Shown here: in pieces, positions 6,173 to 17,063 of the stretch
How positions within the stretch are numbered: position 1 is the first letter of the stretch
Layout of the letters: each line of letters starts with the position of its first letter
Virus genome (UHGV): UHGV-1600942
Source of the DNA: a virus
Length of the DNA: 18,186 nucleotides
Direction: 5' to 3' (one strand)
Program-made: the position numbers and the translations under genes
The notes under the pieces: model-generated
What the model saw: only the letters and a program-made list of their open reading frames with translations
What the model was told of the DNA's origin: nothing
Database searches by the model: none

Positions 6173-7192
6173 TTGGATAAGTTTGATGAGATTCATGTAG
6201 ACATTGAATCTGAGCAGCAAGCCTTCGATTTGCTTGAAAGCTATCTTGATGGTTATGGTTTACCTGACAGTTTAAGTTTCAACGGATGGCCAAACCTTAC
6301 CATCAGATTAACCGGTGAAAAATTCAACAGATCGCTAACACCTTCAGTTATGAAGGGATTTGTTGAAATGCAAGCTCAAATCAACAAATCATATGCCCTT
6401 GCCAAGTACGGTGTCCCTGACGTCCGCAAACTGACCAAAGAAGAACTTGATGCCCTAGAAATAGAAGTTACGGTAGAACAGGGTTCTTCAATAGTAGAAA
6501 TCAACATTGATGGCTTTTTAACCAAACTCACACAGGAACTTGTTGGTAAAATGAACGCAACTGAGATCATGTTTACTGTTCTCGGCGCAGCAGTCATCTG
6601 GGGCGGAGTAACAGTATTTAAACGGTTCTTGGACAACCGCAAAGATATTCGCCTTGCAGAAATTGCTAAGGATGGAGAGAAAGAACATCTCCGGACTATG
6701 CAGATCATGAGCGAGCAAGAAACTAAACGCCTGCGGGTTATTTCAGAAATGATTGCGGAAAAACCACTTCTCGATAACATGGACCGTATGTCGTATGACG
6801 CTAAAACCCAAATGGTCAAATCCTTTGTGCGTTCAGATAACGCTCAAATTGATGGCGTTACTATTGATTCTGAAATGGCGAAAGAGTTGGTTACGAATGC
6901 TCGTAGACGTTCATCAGAAATGAGGATTGATGGTATTTACCGAATTGAAGAAGTCAATAATACTGACCCAGAGAGTTTCAAAGTTAAGGTCCGACGCGTA
7001 GATACCGACCAACGTCTAACCTGCGTAGTTCAGGATGTTTTCCTTGATGAATCCGGAAACAAAGAAGCATTGCAGCGAGCTGAGTGGGAAAGAAAGCCTG
7101 TACATTTGAGCATTAACGCAAAACACGTCGATGGTGACATTAAGTCAGCAGTAATTCTCTATGTTCGAGATGTGGAACAAAAGCCCGAGTAA
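6173..7192 (+). CDS. Hypothetical 339-aa single-pass membrane protein (AT-rich cargo gene)
   Basis: Long plus-strand ORF on the opposite strand to all flanking phage genes. TTG start at 6173 preceded by GAGGA SD with 7-nt spacer. One hydrophobic segment (EIMFTVLGAAVIWGGVTVF) between an acidic N-terminal domain and a charged C-terminal domain. Visibly lower GC than neighbours. I recognise no family. Confidence 0.7.
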   Translation: MDKFDEIHVDIESEQQAFDLLESYLDGYGLPDSLSFNGWPNLTIRLTGEKFNRSLTPSVMKGFVEMQAQINKSYALAKYGVPDVRKLTKEELDALEIEVTVEQGSSIVEINIDGFLTKLTQELVGKMNATEIMFTVLGAAVIWGGVTVFKRFLDNRKDIRLAEIAKDGEKEHLRTMQIMSEQETKRLRVISEMIAEKPLLDNMDRMSYDAKTQMVKSFVRSDNAQIDGVTIDSEMAKELVTNARRRSSEMRIDGIYRIEEVNNTDPESFKVKVRRVDTDQRLTCVVQDVFLDESGNKEALQRAEWERKPVHLSINAKHVDGDIKSAVILYVRDVEQKPE

Positions 7193-7206: not shown

Positions 7207-7584
7207 TCAATCTTTAACTTCGGGGTCCATCTCTAGACTAATTTCCAACATCGATAGGCAGCCATCAATAAACCCCTCAGCCATCTGTATCTCAATGCGT
7301 ATTAGTTTCTCATCCTTTTTACGAGCCTTGGCGAGCTTTCTTTTAGAGATACCGTATAGGTAATGGGCAACAAGAAGCGAGTGTTCTTCAGGTCTTTTTT
7401 GCTTTAGACGAGCAAGACAACCTTCAATAATTAATGCATCACTATCTGAACAAGCCTGACGTGTTTTGCTTGTATAGGGAAGAAGCCCTTTAAACCCAGC
7501 AGCTATAGGCGAATAGTCTACCCCAGAACTATCACTCGCCGCCCATGCCCCCCAACGATCCAGAACCATCTGAATATCACGCAT
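7207..7584 (-). CDS. Q: Late-gene antiterminator Q (phage 82/21-type)
   Basis: Track ORF 7207..7599 (TTG); likely start MRDIQMVLDRWGAWAA... at ATG 7582-7584 with GGAGA SD. The N-terminal motif matches what I recall for Q antiterminators of lambdoid prophages. Confidence 0.8.
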   Translation of the reverse strand: MRDIQMVLDRWGAWAASDSSGVDYSPIAAGFKGLLPYTSKTRQACSDSDALIIEGCLARLKQKRPEEHSLLVAHYLYGISKRKLAKARKKDEKLIRIEIQMAEGFIDGCLSMLEISLEMDPEVKD

Positions 7585-7601
7585 CAACTTTCTCCACAAA
7601 A

Positions 7602-13388: not shown

Positions 13389-13416
13389 TACATGATTGAA
13401 ATGAACCTTCAAGATA

Positions 13417-13437
13417 CTTGTACCTTAACGGTACAAG
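13417..13437. promoter_or_regulatory. Operator site B (TGTAC-N7-GTACA) overlapping candidate pRM -35
   Basis: Perfect palindrome CTTGTACC-ttaac-GGTACAAG with the same half-site spacing as site A. Candidate pRM: -35 TTGTAC (13418-13423), 17-nt spacer, -10 TTTAAT (13441-13446), giving a near-leaderless cI mRNA. Confidence 0.55.
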
Positions 13438-13452
13438 GGTTTTAATTTCGTT

Positions 13453-14127
13453 ATGAAAACAATCCATGACATCCGGCGGTCTAACGCCAGAAAACTGAGA
13501 GATGGTGTTGGCGGGAATTCTTCCTTTGCCACTATGATTGATCGCGAGCCAACCCAGACCAGCAGGTTTATGGGAGATGGTGCTACTAAAAATATCGGTG
13601 ACAGCATGGCACGACACATCGAAAAATGTTTCGACCTGCCTGTCGGATGGCTCGATCAAGAACACCAGACAACGAACATCACAAAAAAACCTGATGTTTC
13701 AATCACTAATAAACAAATCACATTAGTCCCTGTCATATCATGGGTACAGGCCGGAGCATGGAAAGAAGTTGGATATTCTGAGGTTGATTTGAGCACAGCA
13801 GAAACGTATCCCTGCCCTGTACCCTGTGGGGAAATGACTTATATCTTGCGGGTGATAGGTGATTCAATGATTGATGAGTACCGCCCGGGAGACATGATTT
13901 TTGTCGATCCTGAAGTACCTGCCTGCCACGGTGACGACGTTATTGCATTGATGCACGATACAGGCGAAACCACCTTCAAAAGGTTGATAGAAGATGGGAC
14001 ACAGCGTTATCTCAAAGCGTTAAACCCAAACTGGCCTGAGCCTTACATTAAGATCAACGGTAATTGCTCTATAATTGGTACAGTGATTTTCTCAGGAAAA
14101 CCAAGAAGATACAAAATCAAAGCCTAA
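13453..14127 (+). CDS. cI: CI-like prophage repressor (HTH + S24 LexA-like autopeptidase)
   Basis: 224 aa; N-terminal HTH region, Ala-Gly cleavage site (WVQAG/AW), and S24 catalytic Ser (VIGDSM) and Lys (FKRL). Confidence 0.9.
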   Translation: MKTIHDIRRSNARKLRDGVGGNSSFATMIDREPTQTSRFMGDGATKNIGDSMARHIEKCFDLPVGWLDQEHQTTNITKKPDVSITNKQITLVPVISWVQAGAWKEVGYSEVDLSTAETYPCPVPCGEMTYILRVIGDSMIDEYRPGDMIFVDPEVPACHGDDVIALMHDTGETTFKRLIEDGTQRYLKALNPNWPEPYIKINGNCSIIGTVIFSGKPRRYKIKA

Positions 14128-14139
14128 TCAATGTTTATG

Positions 14140-14163
14140 AACCTGCTTCGGCAGGTTTTTTTA
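14140..14163 (+). terminator. Rho-independent terminator downstream of cI
   Basis: AACCTGC-ttcg-GCAGGTT (7-bp stem, UUCG tetraloop) followed by TTTTTTT. Confidence 0.8.
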
Positions 14164-14166
14164 TAC

Positions 14167-14194
14167 TTGACAATGTACCTTTGAGATACATAAT
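14167..14194 (+). promoter_or_regulatory. pL-like early-left promoter with embedded operator-like half-sites
   Basis: TTGACA (14167-14172), 16-nt spacer, CATAAT (14189-14194). Spacer contains TGTAC-N7-ATACA (14174-14190), resembling the TGTAC-N7-GTACA operators. Confidence 0.55.
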
Positions 14195-14284
14195 GTACCC
14201 AAGCGAAACAACGAACAGGCAGGACGCCCACGAAGTAGCCGCCTGGGGCATATGAAGTCCAGGATGATTCGTTAGCAACAAAAA

Positions 14285-14317
14285 AGCGCCCTACAGGACG
14301 CTTAGCTCTTTAACAAT
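14285..14317 (+). promoter_or_regulatory. rrn-type antitermination element (boxB-like hairpin + boxA)
   Basis: GCTCTTTAACAAT at 14305-14317 is identical to the 13-nt core of the E. coli rrn boxA (TGCTCTTTAACAATTTATCA) as I recall it. It is preceded by an A-run and a hairpin (AGCGCC-ctaca-GGaCGCT), the same boxB-then-boxA order as rrn leaders. Confidence 0.5.
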
Positions 14318-14361
14318 CTGGTCCCCATCAACAAGTAACTGATAACTTGAGGAGATGTGAA

Positions 14362-14568
14362 ATGCACAAAACAGAACCCAAAATCGTCGCGCCTGGCTAC
14401 ACAGATGAGGAAATTTATGAGTGGATGACAAAGAAGCTGGCAGCTATAAACCAGCTTCGTGAAGTGCTGTCTTATCGACAGGAAACAATAGACTCCTTAA
14501 AAAAACTGGATCAGGAAATCACGGTTTTATCACAGGATGTTACTTTAGATATTGTGCAGACAAATTAG
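14362..14568 (+). CDS. Hypothetical 68-aa protein
   Basis: ATG at 14362 preceded by GAGGAG SD with 7-nt spacer. AT-rich; predicted helical (LAAINQLREVLSYRQETIDSLKKLDQEI). No Arg-rich motif, so not N-like. 3' end overlaps the convergent ORF144 by 29 nt. Confidence 0.45.
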   Translation: MHKTEPKIVAPGYTDEEIYEWMTKKLAAINQLREVLSYRQETIDSLKKLDQEITVLSQDVTLDIVQTN

Positions 14569-14974
14569 GATCCCATTCATTTTCGTCAAAATCATCAAAG
14601 TGATGAATTTGTGATCTCCAGTCTCGATAATCTAAAAATTTCTGGGCGGTTACGCTTATTTTATCAAGTGTGAGTTCATCCTGAATTGAAAGAAGAAGTT
14701 CATCAAATTTCATCTCATTAATCTGTTTTGGCATCCAGTGATGCTTCATCAGAATAAGGTGAACCAGAGCCTTTTTCCCATTCAACTGATTATAGGGAGT
14801 GCCGAATTTCTTCCGGTGCTCATGTAAGACAAGGTCCAAAAGAGTAAGTAATGTTGCCCTTGATTCAACTTTGCTTATTTCGACTGATGACACTACCCCA
14901 CTGATTTCAATGCCCCGATACTTTCCAACATTTTCACAGTGGGATTTGTACAGCGTATAGATATTACCGGACAT
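14540..14974 (-). CDS. Hypothetical 144-aa protein (AT-rich cargo gene beside the immunity region)
   Basis: Minus-strand ORF antisense to the early-left operon. ATG 14972-14974 with AAGGAAAAG SD 6 nt upstream. Low GC; acidic C-terminal tail. I recognise no family. Confidence 0.65.
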   Translation of the reverse strand: MSGNIYTLYKSHCENVGKYRGIEISGVVSSVEISKVESRATLLTLLDLVLHEHRKKFGTPYNQLNGKKALVHLILMKHHWMPKQINEMKFDELLLSIQDELTLDKISVTAQKFLDYRDWRSQIHHFDDFDENEWDPNLSAQYLK

Positions 14975-14990
14975 TTCTTTTCCTTTTGCG

Positions 14991-15038
14991 TTGTTGGGGA
15001 TAACCAGATTAACCGAATCCTTGTTGTTGGGGAATAAC
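14991..15038. repeat. Two direct repeats TTGTTGGGGA(A)TAAC upstream of ORF144
   Basis: Copies at 14991-15004 and 15024-15038 (33-bp period), 17-65 bp upstream of the ORF144 start codon. Confidence 0.4.
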
Positions 15039-15044
15039 TAGGTC

Positions 15045-15490
15045 CACCTCGCCTGATGTGGCTAAAAGCAGGCACATAACAGCTAAGTATTTTCAACCAG
15101 AGAGAATCCTTAGCGTTGTGGTGAATGCGGCTCAGCGCACGCGGGTTAAGGTTGAGGCTGACAGTCGACCTTCTGTGGATACCCACCCGCCTGGTGTGCA
15201 ACCTTCGCCAGGCACCGGGAGGCACCCGGCACCACAACTTTATGCTGTGTGTAGTCCTGGCGGTACCAGTTTGTACCCTTGCTTCCGGCTGGTACCGTCC
15301 TTTTTACAAAACAGAGAAGAGCATCACCGGACGACGGGCTCATAACCCAATCCATCCGGGCGGCTGCCACCGCAGGTGTTCTTCTCTGTTTTGTGGAGAA
15401 ACTAACCGCCCCTACGGGGGCATTTATGGAAATGTAATTGACTCAATAACCGCCGGACGGTGAGGGCTTCCTTTTACCCGAATTCAGCGC
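15045..15490. other. GC-rich, hairpin-dense non-coding segment (candidate structured RNA or protein-binding locus)
   Basis: About 450 bp with no credible ORF. Perfect 15-bp inverted repeat ACAAAACAGAGAAGA (15306-15320) / TCTTCTCTGTTTTGT (15380-15394) around 59 bp; 9-bp inverted repeat CGGTACCAG (15261-15269) / CTGGTACCG (15289-15297); further GC stems (CCGGG/CCCGG, GCCCC/GGGGC). Confidence 0.3.
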
Positions 15491-15518
15491 GGTGCAGCGC
15501 ATATACGTGGAGAACAAA

Positions 15519-16055
15519 ATGTCATTTATTAAAACTTTTTCCGGGAAGCATTTTTATTATGACAGGATAAATAAAGACGACATCGTTATTAACGATATCG
15601 CGGTTTCCCTTTCAAATATCTGTCGCTTTGCAGGACATCTTTCACACTTCTACAGTGTCGCCCAACATGCGGTGCTTTGCAGCCAGCTGGTGCCGCAGGA
15701 ATTTGCTTTTGAAGCTTTAATGCATGATGCAACAGAAGCATATTGCCAGGACATCCCCGCACAACTGAAACGACTTCTTCCTGACTATAAACGGATGGAA
15801 GAAAAAATAGACGCCGTAATCCGTGAGAAATACGGGTTACCTCCTGTTATGAGCACGCCAGTGAAATATGCCGATCTCATTATGCTGGCAACCGAACGCC
15901 GCGATCTCGGGCTTGATGATGGCTCTTTCTGGCCTGTGCTGGAAGGTATCCCGGCAACAGAGATGTTCAACGTGATTCCACTGGCTCCAGGCCATGCCTA
16001 CGGGATGTTTATGGAACGCTTTAACGAATTATCGGAGTTACGCAAATGCGCATGA
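15519..16055 (+). CDS. HD-domain phosphohydrolase (YfdR-like 5'-deoxynucleotidase family)
   Basis: Track ORF 15492..16055; likely start MSFIKTFSGK at ATG 15519 with GGAGA SD. HD motif (ALMHDATEA) and upstream His (FAGHLSHF); 178 aa. Confidence 0.85.
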   Translation: MSFIKTFSGKHFYYDRINKDDIVINDIAVSLSNICRFAGHLSHFYSVAQHAVLCSQLVPQEFAFEALMHDATEAYCQDIPAQLKRLLPDYKRMEEKIDAVIREKYGLPPVMSTPVKYADLIMLATERRDLGLDDGSFWPVLEGIPATEMFNVIPLAPGHAYGMFMERFNELSELRKCA

Positions 16056-16408
16056 ATGTTTTCGAAATGGAAGGGTTTCTTCGTGGGAGATGTGTACCGC
16101 GAGATCTGAAAGTGAATGAAACGGATGCTGAATACCTGGTGCGTAAATTCGATGCGCTTGAAGCTAAATGTGCAGCACAGGAAAACAAAGTAATACCAGT
16201 GTCAACTGAACTGCCACCAGCAAATGAAAGTGTTTTGTTATTCGATGCTAACGGAGAAGGCTGGCTAATTGGCTGGCGTTCTCTCTGGTACACCTGGGGA
16301 CAAAAAGAAACCGGAGAATGGCAGTGGACATTTCAGATCGGGGACCTTGAAAACGTCAATATCACTCACTGGGCAGTAATGCCAAAAGCACCGGAGGCTG
16401 GAGCATAA
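16046..16408 (+). CDS. DUF551-like prophage protein
   Basis: 120 aa; C-terminal W-rich motif (WYTWGQKETGEWQW...THWAVMP). Overlaps the HD gene stop; GGAG SD 8 nt upstream. Confidence 0.75.
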   Translation: MRMNVFEMEGFLRGRCVPRDLKVNETDAEYLVRKFDALEAKCAAQENKVIPVSTELPPANESVLLFDANGEGWLIGWRSLWYTWGQKETGEWQWTFQIGDLENVNITHWAVMPKAPEAGA

Positions 16409-16713
16409 TGACCACTTTTACCGACAAAGAACTGATTAAAGAAATTAAAGAGCGTATCAGCAGCCTTGACGTGCGAGACGATATTGAGCGCCGTGCTTAT
16501 GAAATCGCACTCCTATCTCTGGAAGTAGAACCAGATGAACGCGAAGCTTATGAATTATTCATGGAAAAGCGTTTTGGTGACTTAGTAGATCGTCGGAGAG
16601 CAAAAAACGGCGATAACGAATACATGGCATGGGATATGACTCTCGGTTGGATCGTCTGGCAGCAACGAGCTGGTATCCATTTCTCAACAATGTCACAGCA
16701 AGAGGTGAAATAA
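16408..16713 (+). CDS. Hypothetical 101-aa protein (early-left operon)
   Basis: ATG overlaps the upstream stop (TAATG) and its own stop overlaps the xis start (TAATG); acidic, helical. Confidence 0.6.
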   Translation: MTTFTDKELIKEIKERISSLDVRDDIERRAYEIALLSLEVEPDEREAYELFMEKRFGDLVDRRRAKNGDNEYMAWDMTLGWIVWQQRAGIHFSTMSQQEVK

Positions 16714-17063
16714 TGGAGCCATACAGCCTCACACTCGATGAGGCCTGTCATTTTCTCAAGATATCCAGACCGACTGCCATTAACTGGATACGCACAGGGC
16801 GTCTTCAGGCAACACGCAAAGATCCCACTAAGAATAAATCTCCTTACCTCACAACACGACAAGCCTGCATTGCGGCTCTTCAGTCTCCGCTGCATACTGT
16901 CCAGGTGAGCGCGGGTGATGGCATAACAGAGGAAAGAAAATGTCACTCTTCCGCAGAGGTGAAATATGGTACGCCAGTTTCACATTGCCGAACGGTAAAA
17001 GATTTAAACAGTCTCTTGGAACAAAGGACAAAAGGCAGGCGACAGAACTCCATGACAAGCTAA
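16713..17063 (+). CDS. xis: Excisionase-like HTH protein
   Basis: Track ORF 16629..17063; likely start [31 protein letters not shown] at ATG 16713. Immediately upstream of int; the ORF runs 124 nt into int in another frame. Confidence 0.6.

Follow-up and report, generated by a model that had tools for sequence, protein, structure and literature searches.

Here, we describe an rRNA-type boxA in the early-left operon of a temperate phage and propose, with moderate confidence, that it directs N-independent, Nus-factor antitermination, which would shield an untranslated pL transcript from Rho while RNA polymerase crosses an oppositely oriented cargo gene. The DNA studied, called the window below (the whole stretch analyzed, 18,186 nt of UHGV virus genome UHGV-1600942), is from a temperate phage of the SfIV/SfV/e14 type with a lambdoid layout. 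Positions 13400–15100 share 98.6% identity with Shigella phage SfIV and recur unchanged (100% identity) in prophages of several E. coli chromosomes. The features on which the analysis draws are as follows.

7207–7599, − strand: Q-type late antiterminator
13453–14127, + strand: cI-like LexA-family repressor (ymfK type), co-directional with pL; annotated cI/ymfK in SfIV, SfV, and E. coli matches
14139–14166, + strand: intrinsic terminator of the cI transcript, GAACCTGCTTCGGCAGGTTT (14139–14158) and then a T-run
14167–14199, + strand: pL-like early-left promoter, TTGACA at 14167, a 16-nt spacer, and CATAAT ending at 14194
14210–14273, + strand: structured leader RNA of 64 nt with three helices (RNAalifold, covariation, covariance model)
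14277–14303, − strand: predicted intrinsic terminator for cargo transcription, AAGCGUCCUGUAGGGCGCUU and then UUUUUUGUU (terminator scan)
14305–14322, + strand: rrn-type boxA with spacer-type 3' flank, GCTCTTTAACAAT + CTGGT
14362–14568, + strand: first pL-operon ORF (orf68), 68 aa, phrog_1744, not Arg-rich; Shine-Dalgarno (SD) GAGGAG about 30 nt past boxA
14540–14974, − strand: convergent cargo gene, ECs1072 family, phrog_5286; crossed in antisense by pL transcripts
15492–16055, + strand: distal early-left gene, 5'-deoxynucleotidase-like (PHROG/Pfam matches)
16046–16408, + strand: distal early-left gene, DUF551 (PHROG/Pfam matches)
16408–16713, + strand: distal early-left ORF with no function assigned by PHROG/Pfam searches
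16629–17063, + strand: distal early-left gene, excisionase (xis; PHROG/Pfam matches)

The pL-like site agrees with the sigma-70 consensus at 11 of 12 positions, lies directly after the cI-like gene and its terminator, and is annotated as a promoter in phage Ayreon; the cI terminator carries a terminator annotation in both SfV and Ayreon. Transcription is predicted from the sequence to start at about 14201. The motif ATGTACC occurs only three times in the window, with two copies overlapping the pL-like promoter (14173 and 14193) and the third in the cI/cro intergenic operator region. Since the motif is confined to these two places, we predict that pL is a repressor-controlled early-left promoter that reads the + strand. 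Downstream, the start codon of orf68 follows boxA by about 45 nt, and roughly from 14570 to 15490 there are about 900 nt with little sense translation. A stretch with more C than G (14860–14960) falls within this poorly translated part of the transcript, and the composition suggests that the region downstream of boxA is Rho dependent. Within the untranslated part, a stretch (15085–15307, + strand) resembles the sRNA STnc100 in Rfam, although at 43.1 bits (E = 1.5e-6) the match stays below the gathering score of 47. Elsewhere in the window, a 339-aa ORF (6173–7192, + strand) with no PADLOC or NCBIfam match faces the Q gene and is possibly a further cargo gene.

The 13-mer GCTCTTTAACAAT is present as a single exact copy in the window (14305–14317, + strand), about 105 nt past the transcript start predicted for this promoter with its operator motifs. 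It is identical to the boxA core of the E. coli rrnB leader (TGCTCTTTAACAATttatc) and fits both the functional consensus GYTCTTTAANA (PMC5725501) and the rrn sequence GCUCUUUAACAA. An initial reading of the letters alone, referred to here as the sequence-only reading, had claimed an exact rrn boxA core that is beyond chance. Both claims hold: by simple arithmetic, about 5e-4 exact copies of a 13-mer would be expected in 2 x 18.2 kb, the element is conserved as a unit (see below), and the match extends beyond the core into a spacer-type flank. Many Gammaproteobacteria have the 17-mer GCTCTTTAACAATCTGG as the boxA of their 16S-23S spacer. A scan for it using one genome per species gave at least 120 loci, including Photorhabdus, Aeromonas, Yersinia, Rahnella, Pectobacterium, Photobacterium, and Proteus. 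A 23S rRNA lies just downstream in at least 78 of these, and most of the 18 short contigs among the matches listed show the same spacer flank. With its flank, the window boxA is one base off the E. coli rrnB spacer, which reads GCTCTTTAAAAATCTGGAT; the identical 19-mer is found in phage variants L031 and L052.

The surroundings of boxA resemble the rRNA spacer as well. The order in the E. coli rrnB 16S-23S spacer is hairpin-T-GCTCTTTAAAAATCTGGATcaagctg, and the window hairpin likewise ends 1 nt before GCUC, with the CUGG flank also present. No GU-rich boxC element follows the window boxA: rrnB has caatctgtgtgggcac where the window has AATCTGGTCCCCATCAAC, and the sequence downstream of boxA differs between variants. 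Aligned with rrn boxB, boxA, and boxC, the window shares boxA and an rrn-like placement of the hairpin, boxC is missing, and the hairpin makes a doubtful boxB. A search for a second boxA on the pR side gave only 9-mers with one mismatch, such as ACTCTTTAA inside cro. As neither a boxA nor a copy of the leader RNA was found on that side, the device appears to be specific to the left operon.

No N gene accompanies this signal. None of the window's real ORFs has an Arg-rich N-terminus, and no ORF of the pL operon matches an N-type family in PHROG or Pfam. According to the SfIV genome paper, phages SfII, SfV, and SfIV are without N, cII, and cIII (PMC3851460), in agreement with the ORF scan, the family searches, and the original statement that no Arg-rich N-like gene is encoded.

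That statement had come with a demand for conservation in related phages, and conservation is what we found. The boxA-hairpin unit is present in 764 of 5426 complete E. coli genomes (~14%), as well as in Shigella and Klebsiella phages; among the matches listed, it is without annotation in E. coli genomes. The whole 96-nt region occurs in the GenBank phages SfIV, Kati, 569R4, and 689R6. PhiR29 and PhiR49 have just 14270–14321 in common with the window, followed directly by a different convergent gene. In Klebsiella phages of the Kp4882 type, the common part is just 14278–14319 (92.9%), and the repressor, promoter, leader, and convergent gene all differ. SfV shares the leader to about 14274 and then diverges, with neither hairpin nor boxA. 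Mosaic breakpoints fall at the edges of the hairpin-boxA unit. Joints at the edges of RNA modules were also noted more widely: Ayreon and Stx2c phages match the window up to ~14210, Kati-type phages match it from ~14210 on, and SfV and PhiR29 match it up to ~14274 and ~14321, respectively.

Scans of IMG/VR anchored on the hairpin, boxA, or leader yielded about 40 distinct versions of the unit. They differ freely in the hairpin loop, which takes at least 10 forms, and in the linker, which can be A, C, T, or missing altogether. In boxA, apart from one point mutant (L072), the only variation is C or A at position 10, which is both the N of GYTCTTTAANA and the site at which the E. coli rrn leader and spacer differ. 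An intact boxA is kept in 33 of the 35 distinct leader-anchored contexts that have the hairpin; one cassette type (L084/L099) has the hairpin and no boxA. The unit sits behind at least eight unrelated immunity/promoter types and two leader types, and at least five unrelated cargo families lie downstream of it. Judged by these comparisons, the boxA-hairpin unit is under selection, and it looks like a small mobile junction unit that marks the entrance to a slot for oppositely oriented cargo. The leaders of SfV, K-12 e14, and ST64B type have the same leader RNA and no boxA. Many relatives thus do without boxA, some of them still with convergent ORFs, so boxA is not obligatory for this phage type.

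The hairpin itself is best understood from the opposite strand. An A-run (14277–14285) and a hairpin (14284–14303, AAGCGCCC-TACA-GGACGCTT) lie directly upstream of boxA, and the stem of 8 bp with 5 GC pairs is followed on the − strand by the U-run UUUUUUGUU. One stem position is a C·A mismatch in + strand RNA and a U·G wobble in − strand RNA, and all 40 phage variants compared fold more stably on the − strand, at a mean of −11.6 kcal/mol against −6.9 kcal/mol on the + strand. The loop of the Klebsiella Kp4882 hairpin reads UUCG on the − strand. In all cargo variants, the hairpin lies downstream of convergent ORFs, and the stop codon of the convergent gene is 5–35 nt from the hairpin-boxA unit in PhiR29 and Kp4882. 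Because it is more stable on the − strand, has its U-run there, and adjoins the convergent stop codon, the hairpin is predicted to be the intrinsic terminator of the convergent cargo gene. The strand asymmetry and the U-run on the − strand speak against the boxB role that had been assigned to the A-run and hairpin. The hairpin may have a secondary, rrn-like upstream role on the + strand RNA. Such a role is not needed, since rrn boxB is reportedly dispensable and boxA alone is said to suffice (Berg, Squires and Squires, 1989). A second terminator-like hairpin of the − strand, with a 9-bp stem and a weak U-run, lies inside orf68 (14433–14458), and the cargo transcript may have two stop points.

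Between pL and the boxA unit lies a structured leader RNA. Its helix P1 pairs 14210–14215 with 14268–14273 (AACGAA/UUCGUU), P2 is a small GGC/GCC hairpin (14218–14220 with 14226–14228), and P3 pairs 14242–14246 with 14259–14263 (CCUGG/CCAGG) around the loop GGCAUAUGAAGU. Conservation extends to the single strands that join the helices, CACGAAGUAGCCG and AUGA. RNAalifold, given 38 diverse sequences, predicts essentially the helices that were assigned by hand. Across these helices, 94% of cells pair, compared with 23–43% in slid controls, and 108 cells changed on both sides, compared with 28 in shuffles (0/500). P1 alone is found as ACGAA/UUCGU, GCGAA/UUCGC, GCAAA/UUUGC, GUCAUC/GAUGAC, and CCACC/GGUGG. 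A covariance model of the leader matches the window once (14208–14279, 94.5 bits), with no match on the pR side. It also matches SfV, Aeromonas phage pAEv1818, the T5-like Providencia phage PR1, and E. coli K-12 e14, where the copy lies in the 5' UTR of ymfJ (L437 4107–4179, − strand); BLAST adds copies in SfII, ST64B, ZF40, YeP1, mEp237, and mEp460. The model has no match in HK022, HK639, T7, Ayreon, or Kp4882, and when both leader types were compared with HK022 and HK639 by short-word BLAST, nothing above noise emerged. Rfam at permissive thresholds matched neither the leader RNA nor the hairpin and boxA. On this comparative evidence, we regard the leader as a well-supported new structured RNA, absent from Rfam and unannotated even in K-12, and it could be either the antitermination device itself or a partner of boxA.

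In many relatives, the leader RNA is followed by a further segment, here called part 2, with a motif CGG[TC]GCGACAG(G)TAAAC that resembles HK639/HK022 putL; the window has the leader RNA (part 1) only. Part 2 (..CGGTGCGACAGGTAAACGTTCCGC..) shares a motif of 15–16 nt with the annotated putL of HK639 and with putL of HK022, and may be a relative of put. We observed it in mEp237 (L315, ~1560–1640), Kp4882-1 (L006, 2960–3000), L019, and L052, where it follows the leader RNA, precedes the hairpin-boxA unit, or does both. Behind a common leader, part 2 and boxA seem to be modules that can stand in for each other or be combined. Their apparent exchangeability lends circumstantial support to an antitermination role for boxA.

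We also looked at what lies behind the leader, in the sample anchored on the leader, which was chosen for having no bias with respect to boxA. In its 102 distinct downstream contexts, boxA lies within 200 nt in 33. By a greedy longest-ORF tally, which makes the counts approximate, a convergent ORF dominates the next 500 nt in 32 of the 33 contexts with boxA, compared with 32 of the 69 without it, many of the latter being spurious ORFs over RNA leaders. As the contexts are phylogenetically related, the counts overstate independence, and we regard the association between boxA and a convergent gene as supportive rather than as a clean statistic. These data fit the earlier idea that pL is read antisense through the cargo gene; the antitermination activity attached to that idea is one that we infer. 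The slot behind the unit (14540–14974, − strand, in the window, with counterparts in L005, L006, L008, L053, L182, and L014) holds at least five unrelated convergent families, among them ECs1072, a Cys-rich protein of 155–175 aa, a two-TM protein of 150–166 aa, and a weakly LprI-like secreted protein. The cargo families of the slot have no significant Pfam or PADLOC match, and for the window's cargo gene NCBIfam gives just the uncharacterized ECs1072 family.

BoxA is also found in the sense orientation away from convergent genes. In L131 it follows a pL-like promoter, with neither hairpin nor convergent gene. In the terminal repeat of the virulent, T5-like phage PR1 (L314 1500–1603), a promoter precedes the same leader RNA, which is separated by 13 nt from CGCTCTTTAAAAAT; no hairpin is present, and a co-directional gene comes next. 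Leader RNA and boxA seem to have been paired independently here. The early leader of T7 contains the identical 18-mer GCTCTTTAACAATCTGGT about 65 nt after early promoter A3. In T7 coordinates, GACGCTCTTTAACAATCTGGT lies at nt ~812–831 (L310 413–432), between promoter A3 and the R0.3 site, and T7-like IMG/VR contigs (L148) carry two such boxAs ~390 nt apart. That L131, PR1, and T7 have a sense-strand boxA and no convergent gene is a reason to see the + strand RNA as the form that functions.

We propose the following scheme. In a lysogen, pL would be off, and the cargo gene would be expressed with its transcripts stopping at the hairpin, which would keep them out of pL and cI and so shield this region from antisense transcription. 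Once pL fires, the nascent boxA would be bound by host NusB-S10 (NusE), and together with NusA, NusG, and SuhB this would make RNA polymerase resistant to Rho, as happens on rRNA operons and CRISPR arrays. So modified, the polymerase could then cross the ~900 nt antisense to the cargo and reach the deoxynucleotidase, DUF551, and excisionase genes. As the pL RNA downstream of boxA is antisense to the cargo and largely untranslated, it would otherwise be a Rho target; in rRNA operons and CRISPR arrays, boxA and the Nus factors are known to keep Rho from terminating RNA that is not translated (PMC5725501, PMC7665894). The presence of boxA, its rrn identity, strand, and place after a promoter-like site, its conservation and modular distribution, the hairpin asymmetry, and the lack of N are seen in the sequences; Nus-factor binding, Rho resistance, and dependence of the distal genes on boxA are inferred. 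Against this reading stand the 45-nt spacing between boxA and orf68, the lack of a boxC-like element, the relatives that have no boxA, and the chance that the leader RNA is the true antiterminator.

The alternatives differ mainly in which part of this stretch they take to be active. The leader RNA (14210–14273) might be the main processive antiterminator, acting on RNA polymerase directly like HK022 put, with boxA as an accessory that helps in loading, RNA folding, or looping, or that provides a redundant second system. The strong covariation of the leader RNA, its far wider distribution than that of boxA, and its place at the 5' end of the pL transcript, as for HK022 putL (PMC9378689), all speak for this, as does the occurrence in many relatives of the leader followed by part 2, with the motif common to HK639/HK022 putL. 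Furthermore, put-like mechanisms in N-less lambdoid phages have already been suspected (PMC12315714). However, the window leader is without part 2, both the covariance model and BLAST are negative against HK022 and HK639, and a leader sufficient on its own would leave the strict upkeep of boxA in cargo-bearing phages unexplained; we consider this explanation unlikely. The spacing mentioned above raises a different one, in which boxA acts as in the suhB 5' UTR and the Nus complex represses orf68 translation, promotes Rho termination, and damps early-left expression. A boxA about 45 nt upstream of an ORF is at the distance at which Nus factors repress, not activate, suhB, and with the SD only ~30 nt away the window boxA is within the range of repressive boxAs (PMC5725501); an orf68 homolog also follows boxA in another variant, L075. 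Most cargo variants, however, have no sense ORF after boxA, with the convergent stop codon 5–35 nt on, and where an untranslated stretch begins, Rho would already do the work of a repressor of the distal xis gene; we find this account quite improbable.

The conserved unit could instead act on the − strand or as DNA, either as an anti-boxA or sRNA-like seed or as a mere recombination linker at a mosaic joint. The unit does lie inside the cargo transcript, with the boxA complement AUUGUUAAAGAGC in the 3' UTR of the cargo mRNA just before the terminator, and mosaic breakpoints flank it, as a linker would have it. Against this, boxA tolerates a single change, one that NusB/S10 recognition permits and that rrn also shows; L131, PR1, and T7 have the motif in sense orientation where no gene converges on it; and a linker need not copy an rrn spacer boxA and its flank exactly. 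We therefore hold a − strand or linker function to be very improbable. We give almost no credence to a λ-type nut site served by an unrecognized N-like protein or to a chance or relic match with no function. BoxA is part of lambdoid nut sites too, and small function-unassigned ORFs lie nearby, but no GC-rich boxB-type stem-loop follows the window boxA, no ORF is Arg-rich, and the order is hairpin and then boxA, the opposite of boxA and then boxB. All that the 45 nt past boxA offer is a weak, AU-rich pairing, CAAGU/ACUUG, overlapping the SD region. With neither a boxB nor an Arg-rich ORF, an N-type nut site was rejected, and chance or relic status is excluded by the conservation pattern.

A broader view, which we offer tentatively and regard as somewhat unlikely, is that a protein-independent, N-less nut site is built from the leader RNA plus the rrn-spacer-type boxA, as a third class of phage early antitermination beside N/nut and put. 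The leader RNA would replace N-boxB by binding RNA polymerase or by stabilizing the Nus complex, and boxA would load NusB-S10. If so, temperate phages of the SfV/SfIV/e14/ST64B and mEp237 types would use such sites, as would even T5-like phages, and boxA and the put-like part 2 would serve as output modules that can replace each other.

Returning to the preferred reading, Nus-factor antitermination by boxA across the cargo gene, we found no description in the accessible literature of a phage early-operon boxA of this kind. Control by a stand-alone boxA has so far been described for rRNA, suhB, and CRISPR arrays (PMC5725501, PMC7665894). A 2025 comparative paper treats early antitermination in N-less lambdoid phages as unsettled and guesses that it is "put-like" (PMC12315714). 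The phages concerned include SfII/SfV/SfIV, e14, LLS, and many prophages. If the proposal is right, one large N-less group simply takes over the antitermination signal of host rRNA and needs no phage protein for it, and stand-alone boxA control extends to phage early operons. It would also explain how oppositely oriented cargo can sit inside an essential operon, with a terminator facing one way and an anti-Rho signal the other. The presence of the leader RNA in E. coli K-12 itself (e14) makes experiments easy.

Among known systems, the T7 early leader has the identical 18-mer after an early promoter for host polymerase. T7 differs in being virulent, with no convergent gene or terminator at this place and with RNase III site R0.3 and translated genes following; to our knowledge, no function has been established for the T7 boxA. 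Like the nut sites of λ and P22, the window boxA lies ~100 nt past pL, with presumed read-through into the distal early-left genes. Unlike them, it has no N gene and no boxB after boxA, the hairpin comes before boxA, and boxA matches the full rrn consensus, whereas the λ boxA is CGCUCUUA. The put systems of HK022 and HK639 share with the window an N-less, lambdoid type of phage and a structured RNA at the very start of the pL transcript, and relatives of the window phage carry a module with a put-like motif. However, the window leader RNA is not detectably homologous to put, and put needs neither Nus factors nor boxA (PMC9378689). The boxAs of CRISPR arrays and suhB are, like that of the window, stand-alone consensus boxAs outside rRNA operons, and the CRISPR-array boxA protects a long untranslated RNA from Rho (PMC7665894, PMC5725501); the window boxA differs in being in a phage and in being coupled to a convergent terminator and a cargo slot. 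Finally, compared with the rrn signals, the window boxA is in a repressor-controlled phage early operon and has no boxC, a separate leader RNA precedes it, and its hairpin is unrelated in sequence and optimized as a terminator for the opposite strand. In other respects, the two agree: the window core is that of the rrnB leader, core and 3' flank (GCUCUUUAACAAUCUGG) are those of the spacer boxA of many Gammaproteobacteria, the window and the rrnB spacer both have a hairpin that ends 1 nt before GCUC, and the transcript is largely untranslated.
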